DNA of 64,000 nt, taken from positions 2,598,333-2,662,332 of the forward strand of contig OZ255618.1 of assembly GCA_965276615.1 (NCBI GenBank). The letters run 5' to 3'. Below, piece by piece: positions 38,116-60,476 of this stretch (position 1 is its first letter; the number at the start of each line of letters is the position of its first letter). The DNA comes from Acidobacteriaceae bacterium. Lineage in GTDB: Bacteria; Acidobacteriota; Terriglobia; Terriglobales; Acidobacteriaceae. A program made the translations under genes and the position numbers. The notes under the pieces are model-generated. The model was not told where the DNA came from, searched no databases, and saw nothing but the letters and a program-made list of their open reading frames with translations.

Positions 38116-38130
38116 TACAAAACGTTTGTA
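38116..38130. promoter_or_regulatory. Candidate operator TACAAA-ACG-TTTGTA
   Basis: Perfect 6-bp arms with an AAACGTTT-type core like PurR/GalR-class boxes. It lies 161 bp upstream of the TBDR start 38291. Confidence 0.3.
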
Positions 38131-38290
38131 CAGCCTAATGAAATTGGTTACAGCCAAATGTCGCACAATATACCCATGCTGCTACGGGTCCGAAAACCGA
38201 CGCGGTGTCGCTCCGAATTTCCGGTGGGCAGAAGAGACACATCAACTGAGGTTTCACAACGAACTCGATAGCTCGAGGAGCTTGAAGAGA

Positions 38291-43335: not shown

Positions 43336-44232
43336 TCACGGTGAGCTTGTTGCATGGGACGTTGCGTAGGCGCCGAGTTCGTAGGCCATCATGACTTCTT
43401 TGAGCCGCTGTTCGGAACACGGAAGCAGCGGAAGGCGGACGTCGTCAGAACGAAAGACGCCAAGTTGTTTGAATACAGCTTTCGTGACAGAGACCTCATC
43501 ACCCGGCCCAAAGAGATGGATGAAGGGCAGAATTCGCTCGGCAAATAGACGAAGAGCGCGCGAATTGTCATTGGCTGCTACAAGTCTGACAACTTCCTGA
43601 TAGGTTACGGGGAAGACCGACGGCGCAATGATCATGCTGCCCGCAACGCCAAGGAGCAGGCTGCGGAAGGCCACGACATCATCGCCGGAAAAGACCGCTA
43701 TTCCGTTCTTCTGCAAGACGGCGATTTTGCTCAAGTCATGGTCGGTTAGTTTCACGCCTTGGAAATCGGGGCAGGCCTCGACCAGCGCTATCAACTCTTC
43801 GGCGCGAAGCCAGGTCTTGGTGTATATAGGATTGTCATAAAAGATGAGCGGCACAGCGGAAGAGCGATCCAGTTCGCGGAAGAACTCCAGCACCATCTGG
43901 AAAGTGTTGGGAAAGTAATAGGGTGCCGGAACCAATGCGCCGGCGACTCCAAGATCGCTCAGAACTTTCAAAAATGTGATCATTTCAGCAAGGTTTGTGT
44001 TCGCCACACCTACAACGATCTGTTTGTCCGGAGGCGTGTGCCGGACGGCAAACTGGACCAACTCAATCCGTTCCCTTAAGGAAAGAGACACCGCTTCGCC
44101 TGTGCTGCCACACAGTGTGTATCCATCGAGAGCGGGGAAAATATGATCGAACAACCGCTCCAAACTGGAGAAATCGATCTGGTTCTCGAAAAACGGGGTG
44201 GGGATGACTGGGAGTGAACCGGTAATGGGCAA
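43336..44232 (-). CDS. Dihydrodipicolinate synthase/N-acetylneuraminate lyase family (class I aldolase fold) protein
   Basis: N-terminus PVIPTPFFENQIDFSSLERL...CGSTGEAVSLSLRERIEL is typical of the DapA/NAL family. TTG start with AGGAG 6 nt upstream. Confidence 0.75.
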   Translation of the reverse strand: MPITGSLPVIPTPFFENQIDFSSLERLFDHIFPALDGYTLCGSTGEAVSLSLRERIELVQFAVRHTPPDKQIVVGVANTNLAEMITFLKVLSDLGVAGALVPAPYYFPNTFQMVLEFFRELDRSSAVPLIFYDNPIYTKTWLRAEELIALVEACPDFQGVKLTDHDLSKIAVLQKNGIAVFSGDDVVAFRSLLLGVAGSMIIAPSVFPVTYQEVVRLVAANDNSRALRLFAERILPFIHLFGPGDEVSVTKAVFKQLGVFRSDDVRLPLLPCSEQRLKEVMMAYELGAYATSHATSSP

Positions 44233-44567: not shown

Positions 44568-46862
44568 CTACATGAGCTTGTCCAAGGTTATAGGCAAGCT
44601 GCGGATGCGCTTGCCGGTTGCATGATAGACAGCGTTCGCAACCGCGGCCGCCGCTCCGGTGATGCCGATCTCACCGATGCCGTGGGCGCCGAGAGGGGTG
44701 TGCGGGTCGGGTATGTCGAGGAAGTAAGCCTCGATTTTGGGAACGTCAAGATTTACCGGGACGTGGTACTCAGCGAGGCTTGGATTCATGATGCGGCCGG
44801 AACGCTCGTCGAATAAAGCCCCCTCGGTGAGCGCCATGCCTATTCCCATAATGATGCCTCCCATAAATTGTGAGCGGGCGGTCTTAGGGTTGAGGATGCG
44901 ACCTGTATCGAACGCGCCGACCCATCGCGAAACGCGGACCTCACCGGTGATTTCGTTCACGCGCACTTCGCAGAACTGCGCTCCATAGGAGCCCATCGAG
45001 TACTTCATCAGTTCGACTGGCTTGCCCGACATGGCTTCCGCTTCCAGCGAACTCTTCTGTGCGCGGGCAAGGATAGCAGCGTAGGTCTCACCTTTGCTGC
45101 GGTCCTTGCGGCGGAAAAGGCCGCCCGCCCGAGCCTCCACTTCCGCGAAATCGGCTCCTTTGAGAGGTGAGCGGTCGTCATGCCGGACAAGATCGAGGAT
45201 CTCTTTGTGGAGCTTCTCACAGGCCTCATGCACGGCGAGCGCAATGCTGACCGTCTGGTTGGAGCCGCCCGCAACCGGTGCCTGCGGGAGATCGCTGTCG
45301 CCGTATTCAAATCGAACCTTCTCCATGGGCAAACCGAGACGCTCGGCAGCATGCTGCGTTTGCACGGTGGCCGTTCCCATTCCCATTTCCTGGCCGGCGC
45401 ACTGAACCGTTGCCGTGCCATCGGCGCTAATGCGCACACGCGCAGATGCGGGGAACCGGTACGCGGGATAGAAGGCAGTCGCCACACCCTGGCCAAGCAG
45501 CCAATCGCCCTCACGCTGGGAGCGCACCTTTGCGGGCCGATCCTGCCAATGAAATTTTTCGGAGCCGAGGCGGTATGCCTCTTTGAAATGCCGCGCGGAG
45601 AAAGGGATGCCCTTAGCGGGGTCGGTTTCGGCGTCATTGAGCATGCGGAGCTCGACTGGATCGACACCGAGTTCATAAGAAAGCTCATCCATGGCGGACT
45701 CCAGGGCGAAGGTGCCGATGGACTCGCCGGGTGCGCGCATGAAGGTGTTGGCGGTGGTGTTGAGATGAACAACGCGTTGATTGACGAGGAAAGTTTTTGA
45801 CGCATAGAGATGACGCGCCGGAAAAGTGAACTGCTCCGCGAACTCGTTGCTGAAGGTTGTGGCGGTGACACCGATATGGATCAGCGCGGTGAGCTTGCCT
45901 TCCTTGTTGGCGGCGAGGGCGACGCGCTGATCCGATGGTGTGCGGCCGCCGACGGTGCGAAATACACCTTCGCGGCTGAGGACGAGGCGCACAGGCCGAC
46001 CGACGACTTTGGCCGCGAGAACGCAGAGCTGCACGTGCGGCCAAACCGATCCTTTGCCGCCAAAACCTCCGCCGACGAACTGCGAGATCACGTGGACGTT
46101 CTCTTTTTTGAGCGAGAAGATCTTGGCCAGCGTGTCCGCAACGCCGCGAATGAATTGGCTTGCTTCGTAGACGGTGAGCTTGTCATCGCCGTCCCACGCA
46201 GCAGTAGTAGCGTGGAGTTCGATGGCGTTGTGGTTGTAGCGTGGCGTGGTGTAGCGGTGATCGACTTTGAACGGGGCAGCGCTTAGCGCGGCTTCGGGAT
46301 CGCCATGTTTGACCTCGGTGTCCTCGCCCATAATGTTCTTCGGCGTCTCCGCGCCGGGTTTCGCGGCGTCGAAGGAGAGCTCCGCAGCCTCGACGTTAAA
46401 TTTGGCGGTGATCAGGCCGGCAGCACTCTCCGCACGTTCCAGTGTGTCGGCGACAACCAGCGCGATGGGTTGGCCGTCATAGAGGATTTCGTCGGTATTT
46501 AGTACGTTGACGTTGCTGGCACCCGCGTCCGAGCCGCCGGCGGGATCGAAGAGCGGTGGGGGCTTCATACGGGGCGCATTGTCGTTGGTGATCACGGCAA
46601 GGACGCCCATCGCCTTCTCGGCGTCGCTGATGTTGATGGATTTGATTGAGCCTTTCGCTACGGTGCCATACGCCAGCGCCGCGTGGACGAGACCTGGGAG
46701 AGGATACTCAGCGGCGAAGGGCGCTGCTCCAGTGACCTTGTCGCGTCCGTCGAGACGATCGATGGGTTTACCGAGCACGCGGTGCGCATCGCTGAGCTCG
46801 TCGCGATCGCGGTCGGGAATGACATGGACGACTGCTTGCATGACCTTGGACGTGATGCTCAT
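44568..46862 (-). CDS. Xanthine dehydrogenase/aldehyde oxidase family molybdopterin-binding large subunit
   Basis: 764 aa with typical a/b-hammerhead and Moco-binding domains (GGGFGGKG). It has a 4-nt overlap with the FAD subunit. Confidence 0.9.
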   Translation of the reverse strand: MSITSKVMQAVVHVIPDRDRDELSDAHRVLGKPIDRLDGRDKVTGAAPFAAEYPLPGLVHAALAYGTVAKGSIKSINISDAEKAMGVLAVITNDNAPRMKPPPLFDPAGGSDAGASNVNVLNTDEILYDGQPIALVVADTLERAESAAGLITAKFNVEAAELSFDAAKPGAETPKNIMGEDTEVKHGDPEAALSAAPFKVDHRYTTPRYNHNAIELHATTAAWDGDDKLTVYEASQFIRGVADTLAKIFSLKKENVHVISQFVGGGFGGKGSVWPHVQLCVLAAKVVGRPVRLVLSREGVFRTVGGRTPSDQRVALAANKEGKLTALIHIGVTATTFSNEFAEQFTFPARHLYASKTFLVNQRVVHLNTTANTFMRAPGESIGTFALESAMDELSYELGVDPVELRMLNDAETDPAKGIPFSARHFKEAYRLGSEKFHWQDRPAKVRSQREGDWLLGQGVATAFYPAYRFPASARVRISADGTATVQCAGQEMGMGTATVQTQHAAERLGLPMEKVRFEYGDSDLPQAPVAGGSNQTVSIALAVHEACEKLHKEILDLVRHDDRSPLKGADFAEVEARAGGLFRRKDRSKGETYAAILARAQKSSLEAEAMSGKPVELMKYSMGSYGAQFCEVRVNEITGEVRVSRWVGAFDTGRILNPKTARSQFMGGIIMGIGMALTEGALFDERSGRIMNPSLAEYHVPVNLDVPKIEAYFLDIPDPHTPLGAHGIGEIGITGAAAAVANAVYHATGKRIRSLPITLDKLM

Positions 46863-47854
46863 CGGGCTGTCTCCTCATTTGCAAGTTCGGTGAAGACGCT
46901 CACAATCGTCCGCCGGGCAAGTTCCACCTTAAATGCATTGTGCTGAAACGTTCGGGCGCCTTCGAGTTCAAGCGAAGCCGCCTCACTGAGGGTCTGATCA
47001 TCGCACCGTTTGCCGACCAGGAACTCCTCTGCGAGAGACGCACGCCAGGGCTTGTGGGCTACACCTCCAAGTGCGAGGCGGACCTGCCGGATTAGGCCAT
47101 CTTCGATCTCGACCGCGGCTGCGACCGAGACGAGGGCGAATGCGTAGCTGGCACGATCGCGAACTTTGCAATAGAGGGAGCGCTTCGCAAACGGAAGCGC
47201 GGGCAGATCAACATGCGTGATCAGTTCGTCGCTCTCGAGATTGGTGTCTCGCTCCGGCGTGTCGCCGGGCAGGCGATGAAAATCGATCAACGGAATTGTG
47301 CGTTCGCCGCGAGGGCTCCGGATACGAACGATGGCGTCCAGAGCGGCCATTGCAACGCACATGTCGGATGGATGAGTCGCGATACACTGCGCCGACGCTC
47401 CCAGAATGGCGTGGATACGATTGAAACCATCGATCGCGTCACATCCGGAACCGGGCGCGCGCTTATTGCAGCGAGCAGCGCTGTCGTAAAAGTAATAGCA
47501 GCGCGTCCGCTGGAGCAGATTGCCGCCTGTCGTCGCCATATTGCGAAGCTGAGCGGATGCGCCCATCAGAATGGCCTGCGAGAGCACCGGGTACCGCTCT
47601 CGCACCGTGGGGTGTCCAGCGAGATGGCTGTTGCGAACGAGAGCGCCGATGCGAAGGCCGCCATCAGCAAGCTCGTCGACGTTATTGAGCGGAAGACGGG
47701 TGATGTCGATCAGCGTGGCGGGATTCTCAATGCCCTCCCGCATCAGATCGATCAGATTGGTGCCGCCGCCGAGGATCTTGGGAAGCGAACTCTGTGCGAG
47801 CAGGTCCAGTGCTCCCTGCTCGCTTTCGGCGCGCCCATAGGCAAAATTGTTCAT
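46859..47854 (-). CDS. Xanthine dehydrogenase family FAD-binding (CO dehydrogenase flavoprotein-like) subunit
   Basis: FAD_binding_5-like GGGTNLIDLM motif. The start was reset to ATG 47854, which overlaps the upstream stop (ATGA). Confidence 0.85.
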   Translation of the reverse strand: MNNFAYGRAESEQGALDLLAQSSLPKILGGGTNLIDLMREGIENPATLIDITRLPLNNVDELADGGLRIGALVRNSHLAGHPTVRERYPVLSQAILMGASAQLRNMATTGGNLLQRTRCYYFYDSAARCNKRAPGSGCDAIDGFNRIHAILGASAQCIATHPSDMCVAMAALDAIVRIRSPRGERTIPLIDFHRLPGDTPERDTNLESDELITHVDLPALPFAKRSLYCKVRDRASYAFALVSVAAAVEIEDGLIRQVRLALGGVAHKPWRASLAEEFLVGKRCDDQTLSEAASLELEGARTFQHNAFKVELARRTIVSVFTELANEETAR

Positions 47855-48417
47855 CGGCTGACCTCCACTGCATTCGATTCGGTTGCCGGCTTCCGCTCGC
47901 TGTAGACCTGCTGAATCGCGTCGGTAATGCCGACATACGCGCCGCATCGGCATAGGTTGCCGCTCATGCGCTCCTTCACTTCGGCTTCGGAGAACTCCAT
48001 CTGCGAGCCTGTCATACTCGCCGTAACAGCGCTGGGCAGGTCGCTCTCAAACTCCGCCATCATGCCGATTGCGGAGCATATCTGCCCTGGGGTGCAGTAG
48101 CCGCACTGAAAACCGTCGTGCTGGATGAATGCTGTTTGAAGAGGATGAAGACCCTCAGCGGTCGCAAGTCCCTCGATCGTGACGATTTTGCGTCCCTCGT
48201 ATTGAATCGCGAGCGCGAAGCACGAGTTGATGCGCTCACCGTCGACCAGGACCGTGCAGGCTCCGCATGCGCCTTGATTGCAGCCCTTCTTGGTTCCGAA
48301 AAGGTGAAGGTGCTCGCGCAGAGCGTCCAGCAGGGAGACACGGGCTTCAATTTCAAGCGTGTGCTCCATGCCGTTCACGTGCAGATTTACTGTATGTGCC
48401 TCGTTGGCCGGTTGCAT
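47851..48417 (-). CDS. (2Fe-2S)-binding small subunit of the molybdoenzyme
   Basis: CNQGACGACTV and CGYCTPG cluster motifs. There is no twin-arginine signal. Confidence 0.9.
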   Translation of the reverse strand: MQPANEAHTVNLHVNGMEHTLEIEARVSLLDALREHLHLFGTKKGCNQGACGACTVLVDGERINSCFALAIQYEGRKIVTIEGLATAEGLHPLQTAFIQHDGFQCGYCTPGQICSAIGMMAEFESDLPSAVTASMTGSQMEFSEAEVKERMSGNLCRCGAYVGITDAIQQVYSERKPATESNAVEVSR

Positions 48418-48846: not shown

Positions 48847-49872
48847 ATGCGAGTAGGAATCATAGGTACCGGCGCCATCGCTCAGAAGCATGCGCAAGCC
48901 TATCAAAATATAGGATTTGAACTCACTGTTTGCACAAACACCACTGCATCAAAGGGAAAAAAGTTCGCCGACGCAACGGGAGCGGAATTTGTAGGAAGCT
49001 ACGAAGAGGTTTGCCGTCATCCAAAAGTGGACTACGTAGACGTCTGCACAATGCCCGACTTCCGGTTGCCTGTCGTGGAACTATGCGCAAGAACAAAGAA
49101 GCATGTTCTGGTGCAAAAGCCGATCGCGACAAACCTCGAAACAGCGCGGGCAATGATTGAAATCGCGCGCAAAGCCGGCATTCAGCTCGGTGTAGTGAGT
49201 CAGCATCGCTTCGACGATTCCACTCAATTCCTCAGTCAAGCAATTTCCGCTGGGCGTCTAGGTAAAATCCTCCAGGCGGATGCTTACGTAAAGTGGTATC
49301 GGTCCGCGGAATATTACAGCCGGCCTGTCAAAGGAAGCTGGGCCGGTGAAGGCGGCGGCGCACTGATAAACCAAGGAATACATCAGATAGACGTGCTGCT
49401 ATCGTTAGCTGGCCCTATAAAGCAGGTATCTGGATATTGGCAATTAGGCGCATTGCACAACATAGAATCGGAAGACGTGGTTAGCGCGTTATTGTCCTAT
49501 TCCTCCGGTGCGACGGGAGTGGTTCAGGCCTCAACAGCAATCTGGCCGGGATATCCGGAGCGGCTGGAAATCCACGGCACAAAGGGGACTGCGATCATCA
49601 CGGGTGACCGGCTGACCACATGGGACGTCAAAGACGAGAGCAGTAGCTCCGCGCCAGTCGCGGACACAGTGGCTTCAGGGGCTTCCGATCCGATGGCGAT
49701 TTCAACGCAGTCCATGGAACGGCAATTTGTCGATTTCGGTGAAGCCTGCAAAAGCGGCCGGGCTCCTCTAGTCTCCGGCGCGGATGGTTACCGGGCGCTG
49801 CAGGTGGTGACCGCCATCTATGCGTCCTGCAGGCAGGGCCACAATATCGATATCGATCAGGAGCCGCTTTAA
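48847..49872 (+). CDS. Gfo/Idh/MocA family oxidoreductase
   Basis: N-terminal Rossmann motif MRVGIIGTGAIAQKHAQA and an EKP-like VQKP motif. 341 aa. Confidence 0.9.
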   Translation: MRVGIIGTGAIAQKHAQAYQNIGFELTVCTNTTASKGKKFADATGAEFVGSYEEVCRHPKVDYVDVCTMPDFRLPVVELCARTKKHVLVQKPIATNLETARAMIEIARKAGIQLGVVSQHRFDDSTQFLSQAISAGRLGKILQADAYVKWYRSAEYYSRPVKGSWAGEGGGALINQGIHQIDVLLSLAGPIKQVSGYWQLGALHNIESEDVVSALLSYSSGATGVVQASTAIWPGYPERLEIHGTKGTAIITGDRLTTWDVKDESSSSAPVADTVASGASDPMAISTQSMERQFVDFGEACKSGRAPLVSGADGYRALQVVTAIYASCRQGHNIDIDQEPL

Positions 49873-49947
49873 ATTAGCAGGCTGAATTTCGAGTTCCCAA
49901 TTGATCTATTTACATCCGGCCCCCATGCGGACGCGATCAACAATGAT

Positions 49948-51159
49948 ATGAATGTCAAGATGGAATCACGCACGTTGGATCAGAAGAAACTATATACCCA
50001 ATACCGCAACCTGCTGCTCGACAACGTGGTTCCTTTTTGGCTGAAACACGGAATCGATTGGAAGCACGGCGGTGTATTGTCCTGCATGCGGGATGACGGA
50101 TCGATTGCCAGCGGCGACAAATTTATATGGTCGCAAGCCCGCTCCGTGTGGACCTTTTCCGCGCTTTATAATCGCGTCGAGAAGCGGCCGGAATTTCTCG
50201 CCGCAGCGGAAAACTCAATCCGCTTTCTCGTGGACCACGGACGAGACAAGGACGGCAAGTGGATTTATCATGCGGACCAGCAAGGCCGCGTGATCGAAGG
50301 CGCAACCAGCATCTATACCGACTGCTTCGTTGTCTACGGCTTCAGCGAATACTATCGCGCGGTTCGCGATGAACGTGTTCTTTCGATCGCGCAGGAAACG
50401 TTTGAGCGTGTGCGGCGACGCATCGAAGAACCGGATTTTCACGAAACAGCGCCATACCCATTACCGTCAGGCTGGAAGAACCACGGCATTCCGATGCTCA
50501 TGGCGGAAGTGACCAGCGAACTGGCACAGACCACAGGAGACGCCAGCCTTGAGCCGCTGATTGACAATTATGTTGCGCGGATCATGGACCATTTCGTCCG
50601 TCCGGAGCGGAAGGTTCTTCTCGAGTTCCTTACAGCAGACTACAAAGAAGTGCCGCCGCCCGCAGGAACATTCGTGATGCCCGGCCATGCCATCGAATCG
50701 ATGTGGTTTGTGATGCATGTAGCGCGCCGGCGCGGAGACAATGATCTAATCCGCCGTGCCGCTGAAGTGATCCGTTGGCATCTTGAAATGGGCTGGGACG
50801 AGGAATACGGCGGCATCTTCTTGTCGCAAGATATCGAAGGGCACGAGCCATATCTACCGCATTCAGAGAAGAAGCTATGGTGGCCTCACGTCGAAGCGAT
50901 CTATGCGACGCTGCTCGCTTATCGGCTCACCGGAGAATCGTGGTGCCTCGAATGGCACGAACGCGTGTCGGATTGGGCATGGTCGCATTTTCCCGCGCCG
51001 GAATTTGGAGAGTGGTATCAGCGTCTCACCCGGGAAGGGAAGCCGACCACAGAGGTCATCGCTCTCCCGGTAAAAGATCCGTTCCATCTGCCGCGCGCGG
51101 CTATTTTAATCATGCAGTTGATGGAAAGCTCACAGGATGCGCAGAGGTCGAAAGAATAG
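49948..51159 (+). CDS. N-acylglucosamine 2-epimerase (AGE) superfamily epimerase/isomerase
   Basis: Alpha/alpha-barrel AGE-like sequence (VPFWLKHGIDWKHGG, FIWSQARSVWTFS, LWWPHVEAIYA). 403 aa. Confidence 0.8.
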   Translation: MNVKMESRTLDQKKLYTQYRNLLLDNVVPFWLKHGIDWKHGGVLSCMRDDGSIASGDKFIWSQARSVWTFSALYNRVEKRPEFLAAAENSIRFLVDHGRDKDGKWIYHADQQGRVIEGATSIYTDCFVVYGFSEYYRAVRDERVLSIAQETFERVRRRIEEPDFHETAPYPLPSGWKNHGIPMLMAEVTSELAQTTGDASLEPLIDNYVARIMDHFVRPERKVLLEFLTADYKEVPPPAGTFVMPGHAIESMWFVMHVARRRGDNDLIRRAAEVIRWHLEMGWDEEYGGIFLSQDIEGHEPYLPHSEKKLWWPHVEAIYATLLAYRLTGESWCLEWHERVSDWAWSHFPAPEFGEWYQRLTREGKPTTEVIALPVKDPFHLPRAAILIMQLMESSQDAQRSKE

Positions 51160-52380
51160 ATGACAAGTTTGCGGTCGGTGAAGGCGAATATTCTACGCAA
51201 TTACAAGTTGACGGGCTGGAAAGACAGCATCGCTGGCCGCTGGAGTTATCGAGACCTGGCCGCCGACCCAGCCTGGTCTAAGGGTTGGATCAGTTTTGAT
51301 ACTGTTCGCTGGAACAGCAGCGACCGGAAACTTTATTGCGGCTTGAATTCTATCGACGGAGATTTGCTGTACGCGTTTGATCCTCGCAGCGGAGAATTTG
51401 AGTGTCTGAATACGAAGGAGTGGGCAGACGAGTTCGACGTCAAAATCCATCGGACTCTCCTTTTGAATCCCGACGATGGCTGTCTGTATTTCGCAACCTC
51501 TTTGCTGCATGATGTTGACCAGCAGCGGGAAGCAAAGGGCGGCAAGCTTGTTCGCTTCGATCCGGGGACGCGGAAGTACGATCTCCTGAGCGTTCCCGTC
51601 CCTCATCTCTATATCCAGTCCATCGCCGCGGACTGGCAGCGCAGAATCCTTTATGGCTTTACGTATCCTGCCGAAGCAATTTTCAAAATCGACCTTCGGA
51701 GCAAGTCATCGGAAATCCTCGCTTACATTGGAAACGCGATCATGTTCGCTCAGCCGCACAACGCCGTCGTGGATCGCGATGGCTGGCTGTGGGGAACCTA
51801 CGCCGAGACGCGCGCGTGGGATGAGACGACAGGCAAAACTCCGATACGGCTATTCAAATATCACCCGGAGGGTGACAGATTTGTTTGGTTCGATCACGGG
51901 CTGTCATTGCGTGCCGATCAAAAGCAACTACTCACCGACCCGCTTGTGCCACCGGGCGTGACCGGCACTCTCGGCGAAACCAGGCATAAAGAGGACTTCG
52001 GCTTTTGCGATTCGATGACCTATGACGGCGACCGTTACATTTACGCTGGCACCGTAGCGGGCGTACTGAGCCGGATCGATACGCAGACCGGCAAAGTGGA
52101 GAAGGTGGCGAATGTGATGGCCGCAAGCAGGTTGCCCGCTCTGACTATCCGCGATGGAATTCTTTTCGGCGGCGGCGGCATGCACGGCCACACACAACTT
52201 ATCCGTTGGGACCTCCAGAGCGATCGGATCGAGAGCTTCTCAAACCTGGTCGATCCGGAGATTGACGAACGTCCCGCGCGCATCCACGATATCGATGTAG
52301 ATGATGACCATCGAATTTATCTCGCGGAAAACGACAACCATGTTCGGTCCAGCTTTCTATGGACTGTCCACATTGACTGA
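51160..52380 (+). CDS. Uncharacterised repeat protein, probably a beta-propeller
   Basis: The ATG directly abuts the AGE stop. Seven to eight blade-like recurrences are visible (DGDLLYAFDP, DGCLYFATS, RILYGFTYP, DGWLWGTYA, DRFVWFDHG, DRYIYAGTV, DGILFGGGG, HRIYLAEND). Confidence 0.55.
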   Translation: MTSLRSVKANILRNYKLTGWKDSIAGRWSYRDLAADPAWSKGWISFDTVRWNSSDRKLYCGLNSIDGDLLYAFDPRSGEFECLNTKEWADEFDVKIHRTLLLNPDDGCLYFATSLLHDVDQQREAKGGKLVRFDPGTRKYDLLSVPVPHLYIQSIAADWQRRILYGFTYPAEAIFKIDLRSKSSEILAYIGNAIMFAQPHNAVVDRDGWLWGTYAETRAWDETTGKTPIRLFKYHPEGDRFVWFDHGLSLRADQKQLLTDPLVPPGVTGTLGETRHKEDFGFCDSMTYDGDRYIYAGTVAGVLSRIDTQTGKVEKVANVMAASRLPALTIRDGILFGGGGMHGHTQLIRWDLQSDRIESFSNLVDPEIDERPARIHDIDVDDDHRIYLAENDNHVRSSFLWTVHID

Positions 52381-52446
52381 TTTGATGGCAACCGCGCATT
52401 CAGGCAAACTTTGGAGTATGAAGAAAGTTTCTGTTTGCGGGAGAGC

Positions 52447-53595
52447 ATGATGGCATTCAAGTCGATCACAGGCCGCGATCCATCGAACGGGGAGCCAATC
52501 AAAATCTCCATTGATAACGGGCAGATTCAATCGATCACCCCGGGCCCTGCGGACGAGAGTGCCTGGTTGTCGCCGGGCTTTATCGATCTACAGGTGAATG
52601 GCTATCTTGGCAGCGATCTAAATTCAGGCATAGTCGATCCAGACGTTGTGATCTCGCTGACCCGGAAGATGATCTCAACCGGTGTCACCACCTATCTCCC
52701 CACAATCATCACAGCTTCCGAAGAGCGCATCCTCGCGGCCCTTCGCGCAATCGCGGAAGCGCGCCGCATCAGTCCACTCGTCGCTCACGCGGTCCCGTAC
52801 GTTCATGTGGAGGGCCCCTATATTTCGCTGGAAGATGGGCCCCGCGGAGCACACCCGCGGGAACATGTTCGTCCCGCCAGTCTTGCAGAATTCGACCGCT
52901 GGCAGGCAGCGTCCAATAATCTCGTCGGCATGGTAACCATCTCTCCACACCGCGACGACGCGCTGGAGTACATCTCCGTGCTCGCCAAAAAAGGAGTGGT
53001 AGTGGCGATCGGCCACAGCGACGCCACGCCGGCTCAGATCCGTGCCGCGACAGACGCGGGCGCAACGCTGTCCACGCATCTCGGCAATGGACTCGGCAGT
53101 CCGCTGCCCCGGCATCCGAACCTGCTGTGGGCGCAGCTTGCGGAGGATCGTCTCACCGCGTGCTTTATTGCCGACGGGCATCATCTTCCCGCTGACACGC
53201 TCCAGGTAATGTTGCGCGCCAAAGGAATCGGCCACTGTGTCCTGGTCTCCGATGTAGTCGCGTTGGGAGGAATGCCTGCAGGCATCTATGATGCCGAGGT
53301 CGGCGGCGCTGTAGAGGTAACCTCCGACGGATGCGTGAGGAGCGCCTCTGGTGGACGGTTCCTTGCGGGAGCCTACCGTCCTTTGATGGATGGCGTCGCG
53401 CGCGTCGCGGGAATGGATGGATTCTCGTTCAAAGACGCGATCCGGATGGCGACCCGGAATCCAGGCCAATTTGTCGGCGGTCGCGGAAGGCTGCGCGTCG
53501 GAGCCGACGCCGACCTCGTTCGCTTCCACTGGGATTCCGCTTCCACAAAATTGGAAATTCAGAGTGTGCTGGTGAAGGGCGAGGAATGTCTGTAG
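52447..53595 (+). CDS. nagA: N-acetylglucosamine-6-phosphate deacetylase (NagA) family amidohydrolase
   Basis: PGFIDLQVNGYLG resembles E. coli NagA FIDVQLNGCGG. Also STHLGNG and FIADGHHLP. 382 aa, the same length as E. coli NagA. The start was reset to ATG 52447. Confidence 0.8.
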   Translation: MMAFKSITGRDPSNGEPIKISIDNGQIQSITPGPADESAWLSPGFIDLQVNGYLGSDLNSGIVDPDVVISLTRKMISTGVTTYLPTIITASEERILAALRAIAEARRISPLVAHAVPYVHVEGPYISLEDGPRGAHPREHVRPASLAEFDRWQAASNNLVGMVTISPHRDDALEYISVLAKKGVVVAIGHSDATPAQIRAATDAGATLSTHLGNGLGSPLPRHPNLLWAQLAEDRLTACFIADGHHLPADTLQVMLRAKGIGHCVLVSDVVALGGMPAGIYDAEVGGAVEVTSDGCVRSASGGRFLAGAYRPLMDGVARVAGMDGFSFKDAIRMATRNPGQFVGGRGRLRVGADADLVRFHWDSASTKLEIQSVLVKGEECL

Positions 53596-54638
53596 AGGCC
53601 GAACAGATCAAGCCATGCCGGTCAGGCAGTCTCAACACGATAGTCGATCGGGACACGATACAGAATGTGATGGTTCGGCTGGGCCTGATGAAACCGGACG
53701 AGCCAATCAGGGTCGTAGAGCTGACCGGTGGAGTGTCTTCCACCATCCTCAGAATCGAAGGGCCCGGCGAAACATATTGTCTCAAGCAGGCTCTTCCCGC
53801 GCTCAAGGTCGCTCAACTGTGGAAAGCGCCGGTCGATCGAGTGTATGCGGAAATCGCCTGGTTGCAACTCGCACAGCGTATTGTGCCTGGCTGTGTTCCC
53901 CAGGTGTTGGGCATCGACAGGCTGACAAATAGTTTTGTGATGTCATTTCTGTCTCCCGACAACTTCCCAAATTGGAAGTCTGAGTTGTTGGCCGGACGAA
54001 TCGACTCATCCTTTGCGGCGGCAGTCGGGACTACCCTCGCTCGCATTCATAGCGCAACCGCCCACCAGGAAGAGGTCAGGCGCAACTTCGCGAATGACGA
54101 CAACTTCCTGACGCTGCGCCTCGATCCCTATCTGTTGGAGACAGCCAGGCGGCATCCCGATCTGGCAACACGTTTGCGCAGCCTGGTCGCTCGCACGCAG
54201 ACGCAAAAGCTTGCGCTTGTGCATGGCGACATCAGTCCCAAGAACATTCTCATCGGACCTTCCGGTCCGGTATTTCTCGATGCCGAGTGTGCCTGGTATG
54301 GCGATCCTGCATTCGACGTGGCGTTCTGTTTGAATCATCTTCTGCTCAAAAGCGCGGCGGATCGAAGCAATTCAGCATCACTGCTGCAGGCATTCGATGC
54401 GCTCGCCGGTGCGTATCTCTCGGGTGTCAACTGGGAGCCGGAACAAGACATCGAGTTCAGAATCGCAAGTTTAGTGCCCGCATTGGCGCTGGCCCGTATC
54501 AGCGGCAAGTCTCCTGTCGAATATCTCGACCCGGCTGCGCGCCAGCTCGTAATGAACGTTGCAGCGCCACTGGTCGCGCAACCGCCGATGCGGTTGGAAG
54601 ACCTGAAATCTGCGTGGAAGAAAGGATTCGACTTTTGA
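53586..54638 (+). CDS. APH-fold sugar kinase, methylthioribose-kinase (MtnK)-like
   Basis: LVHGDISPKNILIG...FLDAECAWYGDPAFDVAF parallels MtnK HGDLHTGSI...IDPEFAFYGPxGFD. It overlaps the nagA-like gene by 10 nt and the enolase-like gene by 4 nt. Confidence 0.7.
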   Translation: MSVEAEQIKPCRSGSLNTIVDRDTIQNVMVRLGLMKPDEPIRVVELTGGVSSTILRIEGPGETYCLKQALPALKVAQLWKAPVDRVYAEIAWLQLAQRIVPGCVPQVLGIDRLTNSFVMSFLSPDNFPNWKSELLAGRIDSSFAAAVGTTLARIHSATAHQEEVRRNFANDDNFLTLRLDPYLLETARRHPDLATRLRSLVARTQTQKLALVHGDISPKNILIGPSGPVFLDAECAWYGDPAFDVAFCLNHLLLKSAADRSNSASLLQAFDALAGAYLSGVNWEPEQDIEFRIASLVPALALARISGKSPVEYLDPAARQLVMNVAAPLVAQPPMRLEDLKSAWKKGFDF

Positions 54639-55921
54639 GCAACATCACAACCTTGCAGGCACGGCGCATTTGGGATTCACGCGGTCGGCCCACATTGGAG
54701 GTTGAAGTGACATTGGCCTGCGGCGCGGGTGGACGTGGCATAGCGCCGGCGGGTGCTTCACGCGGTCTGCACGAGGCGTTTGAGCTGCGGGATGGCACGT
54801 CCGTGCTGGCCGGCCTCGATGTACAAAAAGCATTGGCGGGAATTGTGCAAGAGATTCGCCCCGTGCTGATTGGGCACGACGCTCGCGAGCAATCGGTCAT
54901 CGATCAGCTTCTGATTGATCTCGATGGCACGCCCAACAAGTCCCGGCTTGGCGGAAATGCCCTGGTAGCGACTTCCATGGCTGTCCTGAATGCCGCCGCA
55001 GCTGCCGCCGGACTGCCACTCTGGCGCTACCTTGCTGCCGGAAATCCTGCAACTTTGCCATTGCCTCAAATCCAGATATTCGGGGGCGGCGCGCACGCCG
55101 GTCGCCGTATCGATATTCAGGACTTGATGGTCATCGCCATCGGTGCCCGCTCGTTTCAGGAGTGTCTGGTCATGACCGCTGAAGTTTACCGGTCCGGCGG
55201 GGAGCTGATGCGAAATCGAGGCCTGCTGGCCGGTGTCGCGGATGAAGGCGGCTGGTGGCCTGCGTTTGACAATAACGAGCAAGCGCTGGATACCTTGGTG
55301 CAGGCGATAGAGGCCGCCGGGTATGTGCCGGGAACCGATGTATCGATTGCACTCGATATCGCCGCGTCGGAGTTCGGTTCGAAGGGTCGATATCGTCTGG
55401 CGCTGGATGGGGTTGAACTGGACACGGACGGAATGTGCGAGCGCCTGTTGCGCTGGATCGAGCGATATCCCATCGTATCGATCGAAGACCCGTTGGCAGA
55501 GGATGACGAACCCGGGTGGATCGACTTTACACGGGCAGCGGGTTCGCAAGTACAAATAGTCGGAGACGATTATCTGGTAACCAATGCAGCACGAATCCAA
55601 GCCGCTGCCGCCCAGGGCGCCTGCAATTCCGTGCTGATCAAGCCAAACCAGGTTGGAACTATCACGGAGACACGCGCTGCGATCGAAAGTGCTCAGGCTG
55701 CCGGATTCTCCACAATCGTTTCAGCTCGCTCCGGCGATAGTGAAGACACAACAATTGTGCATCTGGCGACCGGCCTGAACATGGGACAGTTGAAAGTAGG
55801 CTCCTTCGCACGTTCGGAACGCATGGCCAAATGGAATGAAGGCGTGCGCATCGAGACAGGCCCGGATGAGATTCCACGTTTCGCGGGCGCGGGCGTACTC
55901 GCCGGACGTAGTTCAACCTAA
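54635..55921 (+). CDS. Enolase (phosphopyruvate hydratase) subgroup paralogue
   Basis: Collinear with E. coli Eno from IWDSRGRPTLEVEV to KWNEGVRIE. TTG start with AAGGA 9 nt upstream gives 13 residues before the DSRG motif, as in Eno. Confidence 0.8.
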   Translation: MSNITTLQARRIWDSRGRPTLEVEVTLACGAGGRGIAPAGASRGLHEAFELRDGTSVLAGLDVQKALAGIVQEIRPVLIGHDAREQSVIDQLLIDLDGTPNKSRLGGNALVATSMAVLNAAAAAAGLPLWRYLAAGNPATLPLPQIQIFGGGAHAGRRIDIQDLMVIAIGARSFQECLVMTAEVYRSGGELMRNRGLLAGVADEGGWWPAFDNNEQALDTLVQAIEAAGYVPGTDVSIALDIAASEFGSKGRYRLALDGVELDTDGMCERLLRWIERYPIVSIEDPLAEDDEPGWIDFTRAAGSQVQIVGDDYLVTNAARIQAAAAQGACNSVLIKPNQVGTITETRAAIESAQAAGFSTIVSARSGDSEDTTIVHLATGLNMGQLKVGSFARSERMAKWNEGVRIETGPDEIPRFAGAGVLAGRSST

Positions 55922-56213: not shown

Positions 56214-57266
56214 ATGCACTTTACGGCGTCTGTTCTGGTTTTCGGAATTGCCTGCGCCATCATCTCTGGCATCATGAATGGGATTTTCACTTTGCCCATG
56301 AAATATCTCGGACAATGGCCATGGGAAAATGTGTGGGCGCTGGTTATGCTGGTGCCCTGCGTCATCCTGCCGTTTGCTGTGGTCTTGATCGCAGTTCCAG
56401 GATTCATCCATGTGCTTGGAACTGCGCCGACCTACGCGATCGTGTCGGCCTGCCTCTGCGGATTCGCATGGGGCTTCGGAGCCATCATGTTCGGCCAGGG
56501 CGTCTCGGCCATCGGAATCTCCATGGGCAACACGCTGGCGCTCGCCATCAGCGCATCCTTCGGATCGGTGCTTCCGATTCTGGTGTTGGCTCCCGCACGG
56601 TTGCATCTGCCTCAAGGCAAGGCAATCGTTCTGGGCACGCTCGTCGGTATTCTTGGCATTGCATGTTTTGGCTATGCGGGTTTTCGCAGGGAACGCAGCC
56701 AGAGAGGGAACGAGGAGAAAACGCGCGGCGACATGGTGGGCCACGCTCGGCCTTTCGCCATTGGCCTTCTGTTGTGTACCGGATCGGGTCTGCTCTCCGC
56801 CGTCTTCAATATCGGATACAGCCTGGCGCAGCCGGTAATGCAGACCGCCGTTCGTATGGGGCACAGCACCTTCGCGGGAACGAATGTGATCTGGCTCCTG
56901 ATGCTCACCTGTGGATCGGTGCCCAGCCTGGTTTTTTGCGGATATCTCTTCAAGAAAAATGGCACATGGAAGCAGTATGCGGCACCCGGCTCGATGCGTT
57001 TATACATCCTGGTCATCGGCATGGGCTTGATGTGGGGCGGACACACCTACCTCTACGGATTAGCTTCGCCAAAACTGGGTAAACTGGGTCCCGCAATCGG
57101 ATGGCCGCTTACCCTCATGGCGGGATTGCTGACAGTGAACACGTGCGGATTTCTCGCCGGTGAATGGAAGCTCACCCGCCTGCGAGATCGTCAGTGGATG
57201 GTGTTGGGCCTCTTGGTCACGCTTGCGGCCATAGCCGTGCTTGGATGGTCGAGCACATTAGGGTAG
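56214..57266 (+). CDS. RhaT-family sugar:proton symporter
   Basis: 350 aa with about 10 TM segments. WPWENVW vs E. coli RhaT WSWETMW, and C-terminal LAGEWK vs LKEWN. Confidence 0.7.
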   Translation: MHFTASVLVFGIACAIISGIMNGIFTLPMKYLGQWPWENVWALVMLVPCVILPFAVVLIAVPGFIHVLGTAPTYAIVSACLCGFAWGFGAIMFGQGVSAIGISMGNTLALAISASFGSVLPILVLAPARLHLPQGKAIVLGTLVGILGIACFGYAGFRRERSQRGNEEKTRGDMVGHARPFAIGLLLCTGSGLLSAVFNIGYSLAQPVMQTAVRMGHSTFAGTNVIWLLMLTCGSVPSLVFCGYLFKKNGTWKQYAAPGSMRLYILVIGMGLMWGGHTYLYGLASPKLGKLGPAIGWPLTLMAGLLTVNTCGFLAGEWKLTRLRDRQWMVLGLLVTLAAIAVLGWSSTLG

Positions 57267-58446: not shown

Positions 58447-59469
58447 ATGACGATTGATAATGAAGCCCAATTGGAAGAGAGGCTGGCGCGGCCAACGCCC
58501 GCCGATATCGCAGCCATGCGCGACTTGGACGGCGATGTAGTTGTTCTTGGGGTTGGCGGCAAAATGGGTCCCAGCCTTGTCCGCCTCATGCAGCGGGCCG
58601 TAACCGAGGCCGGCGTGAAAAAAAGAATCATCGCTGTCGCGCGTTTCTCCGACAAGGCGCTACCCGCTGCCCTGGAAGCGGACGGAATTGAAACAATCGC
58701 CTGCGATTTGCTGGAGGATGGAGCGCTGGCCAGTCTGCCCGATGCCGCCAATGTCATCTTTATGGCCGCACGAAAGTTTGGCACCACGGGATCGGAATAT
58801 CTAAGCTGGGCCATCAACACGCAACTGCCGGCATTGGTGGCGGACCGTTACCGGGAGTCGCGCATCGTCTGCTTTTCAAGCGGCAATATTTATCCGTTTC
58901 GGCCGATTCAGTTCGGCGGCGCAACGGAAACAACGCCCGCCGCCCCGCAAGGGGAATATGCCCAGTCCGTCCTGGGCCGCGAGCGCGTCTTTGAACATGG
59001 CTCTCACCGGTGGGGAACTCCGCTGGCGCTTCTGCGGCTCAATTATGCAATCGATCTTCGCTATGGCGTACTGGCCGACATCGCAAGCGCAGTATATCGG
59101 CGGCAGCCCGTAGACGTCCGCATGCCGCTGGTGAACATCATCTGGCAGGGAGATGCGAACTCCGTCTGTATCCGCTCTTTTCCTTTCTGCCAGTCGCCGC
59201 CCTTCGTGCTGAACCTTACCGGACCCGAGACCTTCAGCACCCGCTGGATCGCCGAAGAGTTTGGACGGCATTTTGGCTGCGAACCAACTTTCAGCGGCGA
59301 AGAATCCTCCTCCGCTCTCTTGAGTAACGCGGCGAAATCCCATCGTCTCTTCGGGTATCCCACAGTCACTCCCGATGAAATGATCGAGTGGGTCGCTCAT
59401 TGGATCGAGAGCGAAAATCCAATGCTCGGCAAGCCGACTCACTTTCAGACGCGGGACGGAAAATTCTAA
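58447..59469 (+). CDS. NAD-dependent epimerase/dehydratase (extended SDR) family protein
   Basis: VVVLGVGGKMGPSLV Rossmann motif, 340 aa. The start was reset to ATG 58447. Confidence 0.75.
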   Translation: MTIDNEAQLEERLARPTPADIAAMRDLDGDVVVLGVGGKMGPSLVRLMQRAVTEAGVKKRIIAVARFSDKALPAALEADGIETIACDLLEDGALASLPDAANVIFMAARKFGTTGSEYLSWAINTQLPALVADRYRESRIVCFSSGNIYPFRPIQFGGATETTPAAPQGEYAQSVLGRERVFEHGSHRWGTPLALLRLNYAIDLRYGVLADIASAVYRRQPVDVRMPLVNIIWQGDANSVCIRSFPFCQSPPFVLNLTGPETFSTRWIAEEFGRHFGCEPTFSGEESSSALLSNAAKSHRLFGYPTVTPDEMIEWVAHWIESENPMLGKPTHFQTRDGKF

Positions 59470-60476
59470 TGACCTTAAGCGAAAAATTAAAAAGCGGCCT
59501 GGTGATTCCAGCCCATCCCCTCGCGTTAAGCAGCAGCAGAAAACTGGATGAGCGCCGTCAGCGCGCCCTCACCCGTTACTATCGCGCTGCCGGAGCAGGC
59601 GGTGTCGCGGTTGGCGTGCACACCACGCAGTTCGCGATCCGCCAGGTGGGACTCCTGCGCCCGGTACTGCAACTGGCGGCGGAAGAGCTGCGAGACTCCC
59701 CGATGTTAAAGATCGCCGGCGTTTGCGGTCCGCAGCCAGGTGCGATTGCGGAGGCGGAACTGGCCGTCTCATTGGGTTACGATGCAGTGCTTCTCAGCAT
59801 GGGAGGATTGCAATCTCTCTCCTTTAAAGATCATCTGGACCGCGCCCGGGCCGTTGCGTCGATTGTCCCGGTCATCGGTTTCTACCTGCAACCCTCAGTG
59901 GGCGGCCGCATTTTCCCATACAGCTTTTGGCGGGAATTTGCGGAGATAGAGAATCTCGCCGCCATCAAAATGGCGCCGTTCAATCGCTATCAGACACTCG
60001 ACGTCGTGCGCGCGGTTCTCGATGCTGGCCGGGAAAAGGAAATCGCCCTCTACACCGGCAATGACGACAACATTCTGGTTGACCTGTTGACAGAGTTCGA
60101 TTTTGGCAGCAAGCGTGCCCATATTGTCGGTGGTCTGCTCGGACATTGGGCGGTGTGGACACGGACCGCGGTGGCGCATCTCAACACGGCAAAAGAATCG
60201 CGGGGCACGGCTGCGAAGAATCTACTGACGCTTGCCCAGCAGATCACCGATGCGAACGCCGCCTTCTTCGATCCCGCGCACAATTTCGCCGGCTGCATCG
60301 CCGGCATTCATGAAGTTCTGCGTCGGCAAGGTCTGCTCGAGGGAATTTGGTGCCTCGATCCGGAGGAATGCCTGTCGCCCGGCCAGAGCGAAGAGATCGA
60401 CCGCATCTATCGATGCTATCCACGTTTGAACGACGACAATTTTGTTCGCGAACACCTGGACGAGTGGCTTCGTTAG
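59469..60476 (+). CDS. Dihydrodipicolinate-synthase-like (class I aldolase fold) family protein
   Basis: TIM-barrel DHDPS-like sequence with a candidate Schiff-base lysine in LAAIKMAPF. The ATG overlaps the upstream stop (TAATG). Confidence 0.6.
   Translation: MTLSEKLKSGLVIPAHPLALSSSRKLDERRQRALTRYYRAAGAGGVAVGVHTTQFAIRQVGLLRPVLQLAAEELRDSPMLKIAGVCGPQPGAIAEAELAVSLGYDAVLLSMGGLQSLSFKDHLDRARAVASIVPVIGFYLQPSVGGRIFPYSFWREFAEIENLAAIKMAPFNRYQTLDVVRAVLDAGREKEIALYTGNDDNILVDLLTEFDFGSKRAHIVGGLLGHWAVWTRTAVAHLNTAKESRGTAAKNLLTLAQQITDANAAFFDPAHNFAGCIAGIHEVLRRQGLLEGIWCLDPEECLSPGQSEEIDRIYRCYPRLNDDNFVREHLDEWLR

Follow-up and report, generated by a model that had tools for sequence, protein, structure and literature searches.

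A kinase-coupled enolase paralogue with altered active-site residues in an Acidobacteriaceae genome, a candidate module for phosphorylation and dehydration of a hydroxy-acid

Can a protein in which two residues around the substrate C3-hydroxyl have been replaced still be the glycolytic enolase, and what would it act on if its gene is coupled to that of a kinase? This question is raised by a locus in a 64-kb stretch of DNA (57% GC; called the window below, meaning the whole stretch that was analysed) from an Acidobacteriaceae bacterium (assembly GCA_965276615.1, contig OZ255618.1, positions 2,598,333 to 2,662,332 of the forward strand), in which an enolase-family paralogue is encoded directly behind a small-molecule kinase. 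Public sources all call the protein enolase or phosphopyruvate hydratase, although residues essential in glycolytic enolase are replaced throughout its clade. The reading preferred here, for which we see about as much to be said as to be doubted, is that kinase and paralogue form a two-enzyme module for the 2-O-phosphorylation of an (R)-2,3-dihydroxy acid and its subsequent dehydration, with D-glycerate as the leading candidate.

The pair suggests a two-step route, as yet uncharacterised, by which a hydroxy-acid (probably glycerate or a bulkier compound of its kind) is turned into an enol phosphate. As far as we know, a single function is usually assumed for the enolase branch of the superfamily. 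If the pair acts on glycerate, it would represent a new class of glycerate kinase together with a dedicated shunt forming phosphoenolpyruvate (PEP) at the end of many sugar-acid and aromatic pathways; if the substrate is bulkier, it would represent a new reaction for the enolase scaffold and a new route of hydroxy-acid dehydration. In either case, what is annotated as a second 'eno' in such genomes is probably described wrongly or incompletely, and so are the metabolic models that use it, and the paired Glu-to-Asp and His-to-Ala replacements offer a natural experiment on the enolase proton relay. No description of the kinase-enolase pair was found in a full-text literature search, outside whose coverage the subscription literature lies, and the motif strings of the pair did not occur in indexed text; papers on pentose Route III (PMC6336799) and on CpgD and L-2-phosphoglycerate (PMC12275187) are unrelated to it.

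The paralogue and its active-site residues

The reading frame of the paralogue is unbroken by stops over 428 codons. Its product was matched by Pfam Enolase_N (PF03952, E 3e-44) and Enolase_C (PF00113, E 6e-84), that is, by the enolase architecture of an N-terminal capping domain and a C-terminal TIM-barrel domain, and scored 466 bits against TIGR01060 ('eno', curated cut-off 300), so that it belongs to the enolases by profile. Only weak secondary matches were obtained for the MR/MLE and MAL subgroups (MR_MLE_C, E 5e-11; MAAL_C under its cut-off), which does not indicate membership of either. The nearest solved relatives are ordinary bacterial enolases, and glycolytic enolase (EC 4.2.1.11; E. 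coli Eno, yeast Eno1) has the same two-domain architecture, canonical enolases being about 43-48% identical to the window protein in a trimmed alignment. Translation was assigned to a TTG codon preceded by AAGGA about 10 nt upstream. Because the starts of homologues, which lie at the matching residue (MSxI...ARRIWDSRG), agree with the TTGA overlap with the kinase gene, this codon is favoured over the start of the deposited model P0001 (404 aa), which lacks the first 24 codons (54635-54706) and begins too late in comparison with the homologues. No second enolase-like gene lies within the window, and an Rfam scan of the window gave no match.

In yeast enolase the metal ligands are S39, D246, E295 and D320, the base is K345, the acid is E211, a second Lys is K396, and the phosphate is bound by H159, R374 and S375, while Glu168 and His373 touch the C3-hydroxyl and the water network. 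The paralogue was aligned pairwise with the solved enolases 4mks and 7ckp using HMMER, and with the canonical enolases of E. coli, A. brasilense, C. taiwanensis, L. gasseri and M. tuberculosis (n = 5) using MAFFT. All motifs quoted in a preliminary description of the locus (ALDIAASEF, VSIEDP, VGDDYLVTN, LIKPNQVG, VADEGG, KVGSFARSER, SARSGDSED and DIQDLMV) were found in the translation. Its statement that the metal ligands and the catalytic Lys and Glu are kept was confirmed, the metal-ligand, base, acid, second-Lys and phosphate-ligand positions being occupied by S42, D241, E284, D311, K336, E204, K387, H154, R365 and S366; these residues and Q162 are invariant across the clade. In common with glycolytic enolase, the paralogue therefore has the metal ligands, both loop residues (Ser in the Mg(II) loop and His in the second loop), Gln167, the catalytic base (Lys) and acid (Glu), an Arg-Ser clamp for the phosphate, and the second Lys.

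Unlike glycolytic enolase, it carries E168D, H373A, N155G/S, G207A and T394V/I and falls on a separate branch. The two substitutions proposed earlier, Ala for the His equivalent to yeast H373 and Asp for the Glu equivalent to E168, held in both kinds of alignment: SARSGDSED aligned with SHRSGETED and DIQDLMV with DIQEFM in 4mks and 7ckp, the same columns were paired by MAFFT, and the canonical His and Glu were not restored at either position. The Glu168 and His373 of phosphopyruvate hydratase are thus represented by Asp163 and Ala364. Within the clade (n = 205), Asp stands at the position of E168 in 205/205 members, and the position of E. coli H370 holds Ala in 204/205 and Gly in 1/205; over all kinase-linked sequences the counts are 209/209 for Asp and 208/209 for Ala, against Glu and His in 5/5 canonical enolases each. 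Three further positions near the active site (G150, A202 and V388; Table 1) were added to the two listed at first. The resulting five-position signature, N155G/S, E168D, G207A, H370A and T394V/I in E. coli numbering, is shared by every kinase-linked enolase and by none of the five canonical enolases, without a single reversion in 209 sequences from Bacteria and Archaea. Three helix positions also separate the two groups. Differences from the canonical sequences that are invariant within the clade further include N152Q, N155G, G207A, A213W, L280W, D382H, T394V and Y406W, and a clade-specific invariant His376 replaces a canonical Asp 12 residues past the lost His.

Judged from this conservation, the Asp and Ala substitutions lie far beyond chance. 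Because five positions around C3 are remodelled (N to G, E to D, G to A, H to A and T to V), the pocket is not that of glycolytic enolase, and there must be a change either in the range of substrates or in how the leaving group is handled. Since the two-metal site, the phosphate clamp, the Lys base and the Glu acid are kept, the established enolase mechanism would still allow, and the protein is predicted to perform, enolase-type chemistry on a 2-O-phospho-carboxylate. The replacement of E168 and H373 makes the glycolytic label unsafe, and an assay should precede any listing of the protein as a glycolytic phosphopyruvate hydratase.

Linkage to the kinase and spread of the clade

The 350-residue kinase encoded upstream is identical to the deposited protein P0123 of the source genome. 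It was matched by PF01636 (APH, E 3.5e-17), and its sequence matches in the PDB were methylthioribose kinases (MtnK) only (E 1e-10). An AlphaFold2 model (predicted local distance difference test score 92.3) was compared by Foldseek; the nearest structures were MtnK (2pyw and 2olc; template-modelling (TM) score 0.76-0.82, about 17% identity), followed by PsiK and LxmK, with TvaE and APH enzymes also among the structural neighbours. The HGD[VIL]SPKN catalytic loop (HGDISPKN in the window) and the LDAEC metal-binding motif are kept in 70/72 homologues, and by its fold, its HxDxxxxN loop and its metal-binding Asp the kinase belongs to the APH and eukaryotic-protein-kinase-like superfamily. The earlier term 'MtnK-like' stands for the fold, which matches MtnK at a TM score of about 0.8, but not for the family: against TIGR01767 (MtnK) the kinase scored 74.7 bits, far under the cut-off of 275, and was aligned over the N-terminal third only. 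MtnK, although it is the closest solved fold and shares the catalytic loop and the metal-binding Asp, is only about 17% identical and has MtnA and MtnB as partners rather than an enolase-family protein; methionine-salvage genes (mtnA, mtnB and others) were not found in the window or at any of 94 loci carrying the paralogue. Despite the similar fold, the kinase is not an MtnK. In NCBIfam no named kinase family was matched above its cut-off, the matches being of APH type only (LxmK at E 8e-7), and neither Pfam nor NCBIfam gave a match to the glycerate kinase families (GlxK/GarK, MOFRL GckA and P-loop GLYK). A kinase homologue of 36% identity without an adjoining enolase lies on an Enterobacter chuandaensis plasmid (L100, 6863-7918), where it heads a cluster of a U32 peptidase, an aminotransferase, an iron-containing redox enzyme and an M14 peptidase; it serves as an outgroup and is a different use of the same kinase family.

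When the 94 loci were searched with the kinase by tblastn, it was found in 92, on the strand of the enolase gene in 86. The two exceptions, both truncated by the contig, are an enolase gene at a contig end (L083) and a locus with only 3.4 kb of upstream sequence (L067). An exact 4-nt overlap of stop and start codons, present as TTGA in the window, occurs in 59/92 loci (ATGA in 46, GTGA in 9 and TTGA in 4), loci with called genes have this junction too (...10004/10001...), and the reverse search with the kinase recovered essentially the set of plasmids that carry the paralogue. In Rhodococcus (L098, 5670-7990) and Methylobacterium nodulans (L102, 7751-10032) the order is reversed, with the enolase gene before the kinase gene and the 4-nt overlap retained, so that coupling has been selected in either order. 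The gene arrangement is FAH hydrolase, D-2-hydroxyacid dehydrogenase, eno, kinase and FAH hydrolase in R. pseudokoreensis and R. opacus PD630, and dehydrogenase, kinase and eno_2 in Sphingobium; distant pairs were also found in Persicobacter (Bacteroidota) and the haloarchaeon Haladaptatus. The expectations that the genes are translationally coupled through the overlap and that the clade sits beside the kinase are thereby borne out, and the kinase is an obligate partner of the paralogue by an old link. In Ramlibacter montanisoli (L001, JABFCS010000001.1, 8982-10266) an uncalled kinase gene upstream of the paralogue is open in two frames, a sign of a frameshift or of a mistake in sequencing close to its 3' end.

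The 120 best database relatives of the paralogue (69-100% identical) come from Acidobacteriaceae, Ramlibacter, Azospirillum and Burkholderiaceae, and contain S[A/G]RSG and ADEGGWWP in 120/120 and D.QD in 119/120. When one genome per species was searched for the clade-specific peptides QIFGGGAH and SARSG[ED][TS]ED, the clade was confirmed in at least about 590 representative genomes. Hundreds of bacterial species (from Acidobacteria, Proteobacteria, Actinobacteria and Bacteroidota) and at least one genus of archaea, that of a haloarchaeon, carry the pair, often on plasmids. A plasmid search gave bimodal identities, with 18 records at 60-80% and 331 below 60%; among the top-listed records SARSG was seen down to about 58% identity, and SHRSG in those checked at about 47%. 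Four distant kinase-linked enolases (Sphingobium, R. pseudokoreensis, Haladaptatus and Persicobacter) are 43-50% identical to the window protein, no more than canonical enolases are, and each of the four carries Ala in place of His, Asp in place of Glu, and the ADEGG motif. A neighbour-joining tree split kinase-linked from canonical enolases in 100/100 bootstraps, the canonical side comprising the five sequences named above, all bacterial. The earlier proposal of a distinct clade thus agrees with the tree, and the sequence comparison supports a paralogue rather than a glycolytic orthologue. An old and horizontally mobile sub-family is the best explanation of this distribution.

A canonical enzyme is present elsewhere in at least one genome that carries the pair. 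In A. brasilense Sp7 the paralogue and kinase are on plasmid p1, and an enolase with SHRSGETED and DIQEFMV is on p3 (L094), between pflB and pta/ackA; judged by sequence identity, another A. brasilense genome gave the same two matches, with identical values. Copies of the paralogue are carried on conjugative plasmids of B. pseudomallei and Rhizobium, which argues for an accessory role. Unlike the glycolytic gene, the paralogue is kinase-linked, probably accessory, often plasmid-borne, and placed in catabolic clusters rather than housekeeping surroundings. Secondary replicons carry canonical eno too, as on a C. taiwanensis plasmid (L095) with the arrangement ppc-eno-rraA.

Gene neighbourhoods and the reaction of the pair

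Homology-supported open reading frames of the 94 loci were clustered, neighbours were counted within ±10 kb, and a Pfam census was made of 140 immediate neighbours. No Pfam family occurred in more than 6 of these 140. Since no third family is constant there, the pair is taken as a self-contained module, whose product should be a central metabolite. The commonest functional neighbour over the wider interval was a D-isomer-specific 2-hydroxyacid dehydrogenase (27 loci), in many cases immediately downstream or within the operon of the pair, followed by short-chain dehydrogenases/reductases (SDR; 19), FAH hydrolases (15), LacI regulators (13), aldo-keto reductases (10), EamA exporters (10) and cupins (8). 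Carboxylate or sugar transporters of the TTT, TRAP, MFS and ABC types, ApbA-type reductases, and HpcH/HpaI or DHDPS aldolases also recurred, and the recurrent neighbours appeared in several independent arrangements. In Rhizobium CIAT894 an operon of ppc (PEP carboxylase), a D-2-hydroxyacid dehydrogenase gene and the kinase gene lies about 4 kb from a cupin-eno-VOC group; PEP carboxylase was a neighbour in this one case only. The B. pseudomallei plasmid carries SDR, two UxuA, SDR, SMP-30 lactonase, FAH, kinase, eno and a sugar ABC transporter; in Paracoccus and Roseibium, LacI and kinase-eno-FAH-SDR(-SDR) are likewise accompanied by a sugar ABC transporter. In Enterobacter BIGb0383 and at locus L009, kinase-eno is accompanied by a TcuC-like MFS transporter, a D-2-hydroxyacid dehydrogenase, an MhpD-like hydratase and a GarL/HpaI-like aldolase, and in Haladaptatus an HpcH aldolase gene and kinase-eno-cupin are surrounded by three MR/MLE dehydratases and SDRs. 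A set of about 10 genes was shared across phyla, namely by Streptomyces (L049, L065 and L070), Rhodococcus (L098 and L104), Ralstonia pickettii (L077), Rhizobium (L012) and Sphingobium (L097); it comprises an HpaD-like extradiol dioxygenase, an AhpD/CMD-family protein, a zinc-dependent alcohol dehydrogenase, an NAD(P)H/flavin reductase, a cupin, one or two FAH hydrolases, a D-2-hydroxyacid dehydrogenase, the kinase and eno.

The mechanism in its general form, 2-O-phosphorylation of a 2,3-dihydroxy acid followed by enolase-type dehydration, is considered probable. The acid would be supplied by the variable neighbours (D-2-hydroxyacid dehydrogenases, FAH-family diketo-acid hydrolases, and aldolases with oxidoreductases), and the kinase would transfer phosphate from ATP to the 2-hydroxyl of the (R)-2,3-dihydroxy-carboxylate. 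Because it is strictly coupled to the paralogue and its catalytic motifs are intact, so that it is predicted to be competent, the kinase is the obvious source of the phosphate. The paralogue would bind the 2-phospho-acid through its two-Mg2+ site and Arg-Ser clamp; the kept Lys would remove the C2 proton and the kept Glu would expel the 3-hydroxyl, to give an enol phosphate, which would be PEP if the acid is glycerate. The clade, its residue signature, the linkage and translational coupling to the kinase and the gene contexts are shown by the data; from these contexts and residues we infer where the phosphate is placed, which acid is used and what is formed.

For the acid itself, the route from D-glycerate through 2-phosphoglycerate to PEP is the best single candidate, although it is held tentatively and falls somewhat short of an even chance. 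The frequent D-specific dehydrogenase implies an (R)-2-hydroxy acid, with the configuration at C2 of D-2-phosphoglycerate, and L-glycerate, the opposite enantiomer, was disfavoured as a substrate on this account. The lack of a constant third enzyme, together with the diversity of pathways and transporters, implies that a common downstream intermediate enters the pair and a central metabolite leaves it. In the serine cycle, hydroxypyruvate reductase, glycerate kinase, enolase and PEP carboxylase act in succession, and the CIAT894 genes reproduce this stretch. Hexose routes with FAH-type diketo-hydrolases, routes with GarL-type aldolases and non-phosphorylative routes through glyceraldehyde all end in glycerate. 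By analogy with the diketo-hydrolase routes for fucose and rhamnose, the clusters of B. pseudomallei, Paracoccus and Roseibium may be oxidative hexose routes ending in pyruvate and a C3 hydroxy-acid; those of Enterobacter and L009, with a GarL/HpaI-type aldolase and a carboxylate MFS transporter, are gar-like; and the aldolases, SDR and molybdenum oxidoreductase that flank the operon in the window (Table 1) fit a non-phosphorylative sugar route via glyceraldehyde and glycerate. The serine cycle, the gcl/gar pathways and the non-phosphorylative Entner-Doudoroff pathways (with GckA, GarK or GlxK) contain the same proposed conversion of glycerate through 2-phosphoglycerate to PEP, and share with the pair loci a hydroxypyruvate-reductase-like D-2-hydroxyacid dehydrogenase, a GarL-like aldolase and PEP carboxylase. 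These pathways use the housekeeping Eno, however, whereas the pair has a dedicated, remodelled enolase and a kinase outside the known glycerate kinase families. Overall, gene context favours a C3 route from hydroxypyruvate or glycerate to PEP at least as strongly as a bulkier substrate.

Several points weigh against D-glycerate and, in part, against the module as proposed. The phosphorylation site and the substrate are deduced, many loci carry the pair without informative neighbours, and the cluster with HpaD-like dioxygenase, cupin, AhpD and zinc-dependent alcohol dehydrogenase has no obvious link to glycerate. For plain D-2-phosphoglycerate (2-PGA) a housekeeping enolase would suffice, and the absolute conservation of Asp and Ala would have no obvious reason: Asp is a single nucleotide change from Glu, yet Glu is found in 0/209 sequences. 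In published mutagenesis of yeast enolase, changes at E168 and H373 reportedly lower 2-PGA turnover strongly. The invariant remodelling of five positions around C3 stays unexplained by a C3 substrate, and the absence of reversions among sequences that have diverged as far as the clade has from the glycolytic enolases argues for a pocket that is required to differ.

These observations lead to the main alternative, which we regard as rather doubtful but to be taken seriously, that the kinase phosphorylates the 2-hydroxyl of a bulkier (R)-2,3-dihydroxy acid and the paralogue dehydrates the product to a 3-substituted PEP analogue. The candidates are C4-C6 aldonates (D-erythronate, L-threonate or a hexonate) and 3-alkyl acids (2,3-dihydroxybutanoate or 2,3-dihydroxyisovalerate); with the phosphoryl group returned to ADP to leave a 2-keto-3-deoxy acid, the pair would act as an ATP-cycled substitute, independent of Fe-S clusters, for a sugar-acid dehydratase. 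The preliminary description had proposed that smaller side chains accommodate a bulkier 2-phospho-acid, and the five remodelled positions would be compatible with this. The universal changes strip polar or bulky side chains around C3 (N to G/S, E to D, H to A and T to V/I), with G to A adjusting the strand of the acid Glu, as a larger or more hydrophobic C3 substituent would need, so that this is the natural reading of the remodelling; moreover, the signature does not vary over 43-50% sequence divergence. Enzymes that act on 2-keto-3-deoxy acids recur as neighbours (HpcH/HpaI, DHDPS and RraA-type aldolases, SDRs and FAH diketo-hydrolases), and the window, Paracoccus and Roseibium have the oxidative sugar set and no recognisable acid-sugar dehydratase. 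LxmK, among the structural neighbours of the kinase, belongs to LxmKY, a dehydratase that phosphorylates and then eliminates. An enolase homologue, the carboxyphosphonoenolpyruvate synthase PhpH of phosphinothricin biosynthesis, has reportedly been recruited to secondary metabolism; it would be a precedent for an enolase proper acting on a 2-O-substituted glycerate other than 2-PGA, although, unlike the paralogue, it belongs to an antibiotic biosynthetic gene cluster and is not known to have a kinase partner. On the other hand, no conserved third enzyme for an unusual enol phosphate emerged from the 140-neighbour census, conventional dehydratases adjoin the pair in B. pseudomallei (two UxuA) and Haladaptatus (three MR/MLE), the transporters vary (TRAP, TTT, MFS, ABC, EamA and RhaT) in a way that favours a common small downstream intermediate, and the linkage to ppc points to PEP itself. 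It is possible, although we lean against it, that the enolases with Asp and Ala are the first functionally divergent family within the enolase subgroup proper, acting physiologically on a bulkier 2-phospho-acid rather than on 2-phosphoglycerate; a lesser version would be a fourth, unrelated class of glycerate kinase tied to its own enolase. Bypass of IlvD, with 2,3-dihydroxyisovalerate as substrate, was set aside, its support from context being limited to one IlvC-like neighbour in Haladaptatus, as were further Arg residues (PAGASRG and HAGRR) considered as possible ligands of a second anionic group, which are not kept in distant kinase-linked members.

The two-enzyme module on an (R)-2,3-dihydroxy acid has also to be set against readings that take the reaction or the linkage differently. 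That the paralogue is a redundant glycolytic or gluconeogenic isozyme acting on D-2-phosphoglycerate, with changes that are neutral or compensated (for example by His376) and a kinase that is syntenic but unrelated, would agree with its TIGR01060 score and public names, with first-line catalytic residues kept except at E168 and H373, and with the new invariant His; it is nevertheless improbable, given the complete absence of reversions at the five positions, the strict association with the kinase gene, to which it is translationally coupled whichever of the two comes first, the location in catabolic islands and on conjugative plasmids, and the additional canonical eno in A. brasilense Sp7. No more credible is another leaving group or phosphorylation site, such as conversion of 3-sulfolactate through 2-phospho-3-sulfolactate to PEP and sulfite, or 3-O-phosphorylation followed by elimination of phosphate, an ATP-driven dehydration like that of lanthipeptide kinase/lyase pairs. 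With a better or larger leaving group the Glu168/His373 proton relay would no longer be needed, whereas extra room would be, a TauE/SafE-type sulfite-exporter family gene lies directly downstream of the pair in L008 and nearby in L001, and the kinases LxmK and TvaE are structural neighbours. However, TauE is present at just 2 of about 88 distinct loci, and genes for sulfonate or sulfite do not otherwise recur, for which reason sulfolactate was set aside; the invariant Glu204 acid and Arg-Ser clamp are as expected for a 2-phosphate and a hydroxyl leaving group; and 3-O-phosphorylation with elimination would probably waste ATP in a catabolic setting. The class V lanthipeptide system LxmK-LxmY (PDB 9dk2) likewise pairs an APH-fold kinase with an eliminating enzyme, but it acts on peptide Ser/Thr, eliminates phosphate, and has a lyase outside the enolase family, whereas the conserved clamp and acid Glu suggest that in the kinase-enolase pair the phosphate would stay on the product. 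Finally, the window by itself could be read as encoding an N-acetylhexosamine kinase that serves the AGE-epimerase, NagA-like and N-acetylneuraminate-lyase-like genes, with the enolase gene as an unrelated passenger: sugar kinases are known among the APH-fold enzymes, the operon includes an AGE-family epimerase together with a NagA-like deacetylase, and a distant N-acetylneuraminate-lyase-like gene lies 3.5 kb downstream. These neighbours are seen again at no other locus, while the kinase-enolase pair is seen at every one, and this reading is very improbable.

Surroundings of the pair in the window

The positions of the pair, of the altered codons and of the neighbouring genes are collected in Table 1.

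Table 1. Features of the 64-kb window (positions counted from its first nucleotide)
Feature	Position	Strand	Basis or remark
Enolase-family paralogue, 428 aa	54635..55921	+	TTG start; Pfam and TIGR01060 matches, alignments, clade conservation
Gly150 codon, replaces Asn of canonical NGG motif (E. coli N155)	55082..55084	+	Alignment
Asp163 codon (GAC), replaces catalytic-site Glu (yeast/E. coli E168)	55121..55123	+	Alignments, clade counts
Ala202 codon, replaces Gly of GDEGG (E. coli G207), 2 residues before kept acid Glu204	55238..55240	+	
Ala364 codon (GCT), replaces His (yeast H373, E. coli H370)	55724..55726	+	Alignments, clade counts
Val388 codon, replaces Thr after kept Lys387 (E. coli K393-T394, yeast K396-T397)	55796..55798	+	
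MtnK-like small-molecule kinase, APH fold, 350 aa	53586..54638	+	Pfam APH E 3.5e-17, AlphaFold2 fold
TTGA overlap of enolase start and kinase stop	54635..54638	+	Sequence; same overlap length at other loci
Upstream operon genes, tightly packed (context only)	48847..53595	+	Spacing of reading frames, Pfam/NCBIfam
GFO/IDH/MocA oxidoreductase	48847-49872	+	Pfam/NCBIfam
AGE-family epimerase or isomerase	49948-51159	+	Pfam/NCBIfam
406-aa protein, no confident family	51160-52380	+	Weak DUF6923 and NHL-repeat matches; no PDB sequence match
NagA-like amidohydrolase	52411-53595	+	Pfam/NCBIfam
RhaT-like sugar/H+ symporter, 290 nt downstream of enolase	56214..57266	+	Pfam/NCBIfam
Three-subunit molybdenum hydroxylase: molybdenum cofactor (764 aa), FAD (364 aa) and 2Fe-2S (188 aa) subunits	44568-48417	-	Divergent from operon
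DHDPS-family proteins flanking operon	59466-60476; 43336-44232	+; -	One clear, one very divergent
Carbohydrate-utilisation island	9252-41845		Includes two LacI regulators, DUF5107/TPR and DUF6259 proteins
CarboxypepD_reg + outer-membrane-protein beta-barrel receptors	11799-15161; 31272-34820; 38102-41845		
Glycoside hydrolase (GH) 27 with CBM35	16211-18769		
MFS sugar porter	22386-23819		
GH36	24934-27249		
GH97	29105-31177		

The pair closes the operon, which belongs to a carbohydrate island with GH27, GH36 and GH97 enzymes and three outer-membrane receptors, and none of the families encoded upstream in it recurs at other loci in the neighbour clustering. An SDR also flanks the operon, along with the DHDPS-family aldolases and the molybdenum aldehyde oxidoreductase, and no acid-sugar dehydratase was recognisable among the scanned reading frames of the window. 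Molybdenum hydroxylases of this type serve as glyceraldehyde oxidoreductase in archaeal non-phosphorylative Entner-Doudoroff pathways. The best PDB matches of the divergent DHDPS-family protein were N-acetylneuraminate lyases (E 4e-7), and the 406-aa protein of the operon may be a beta-propeller, for example a lactonase.

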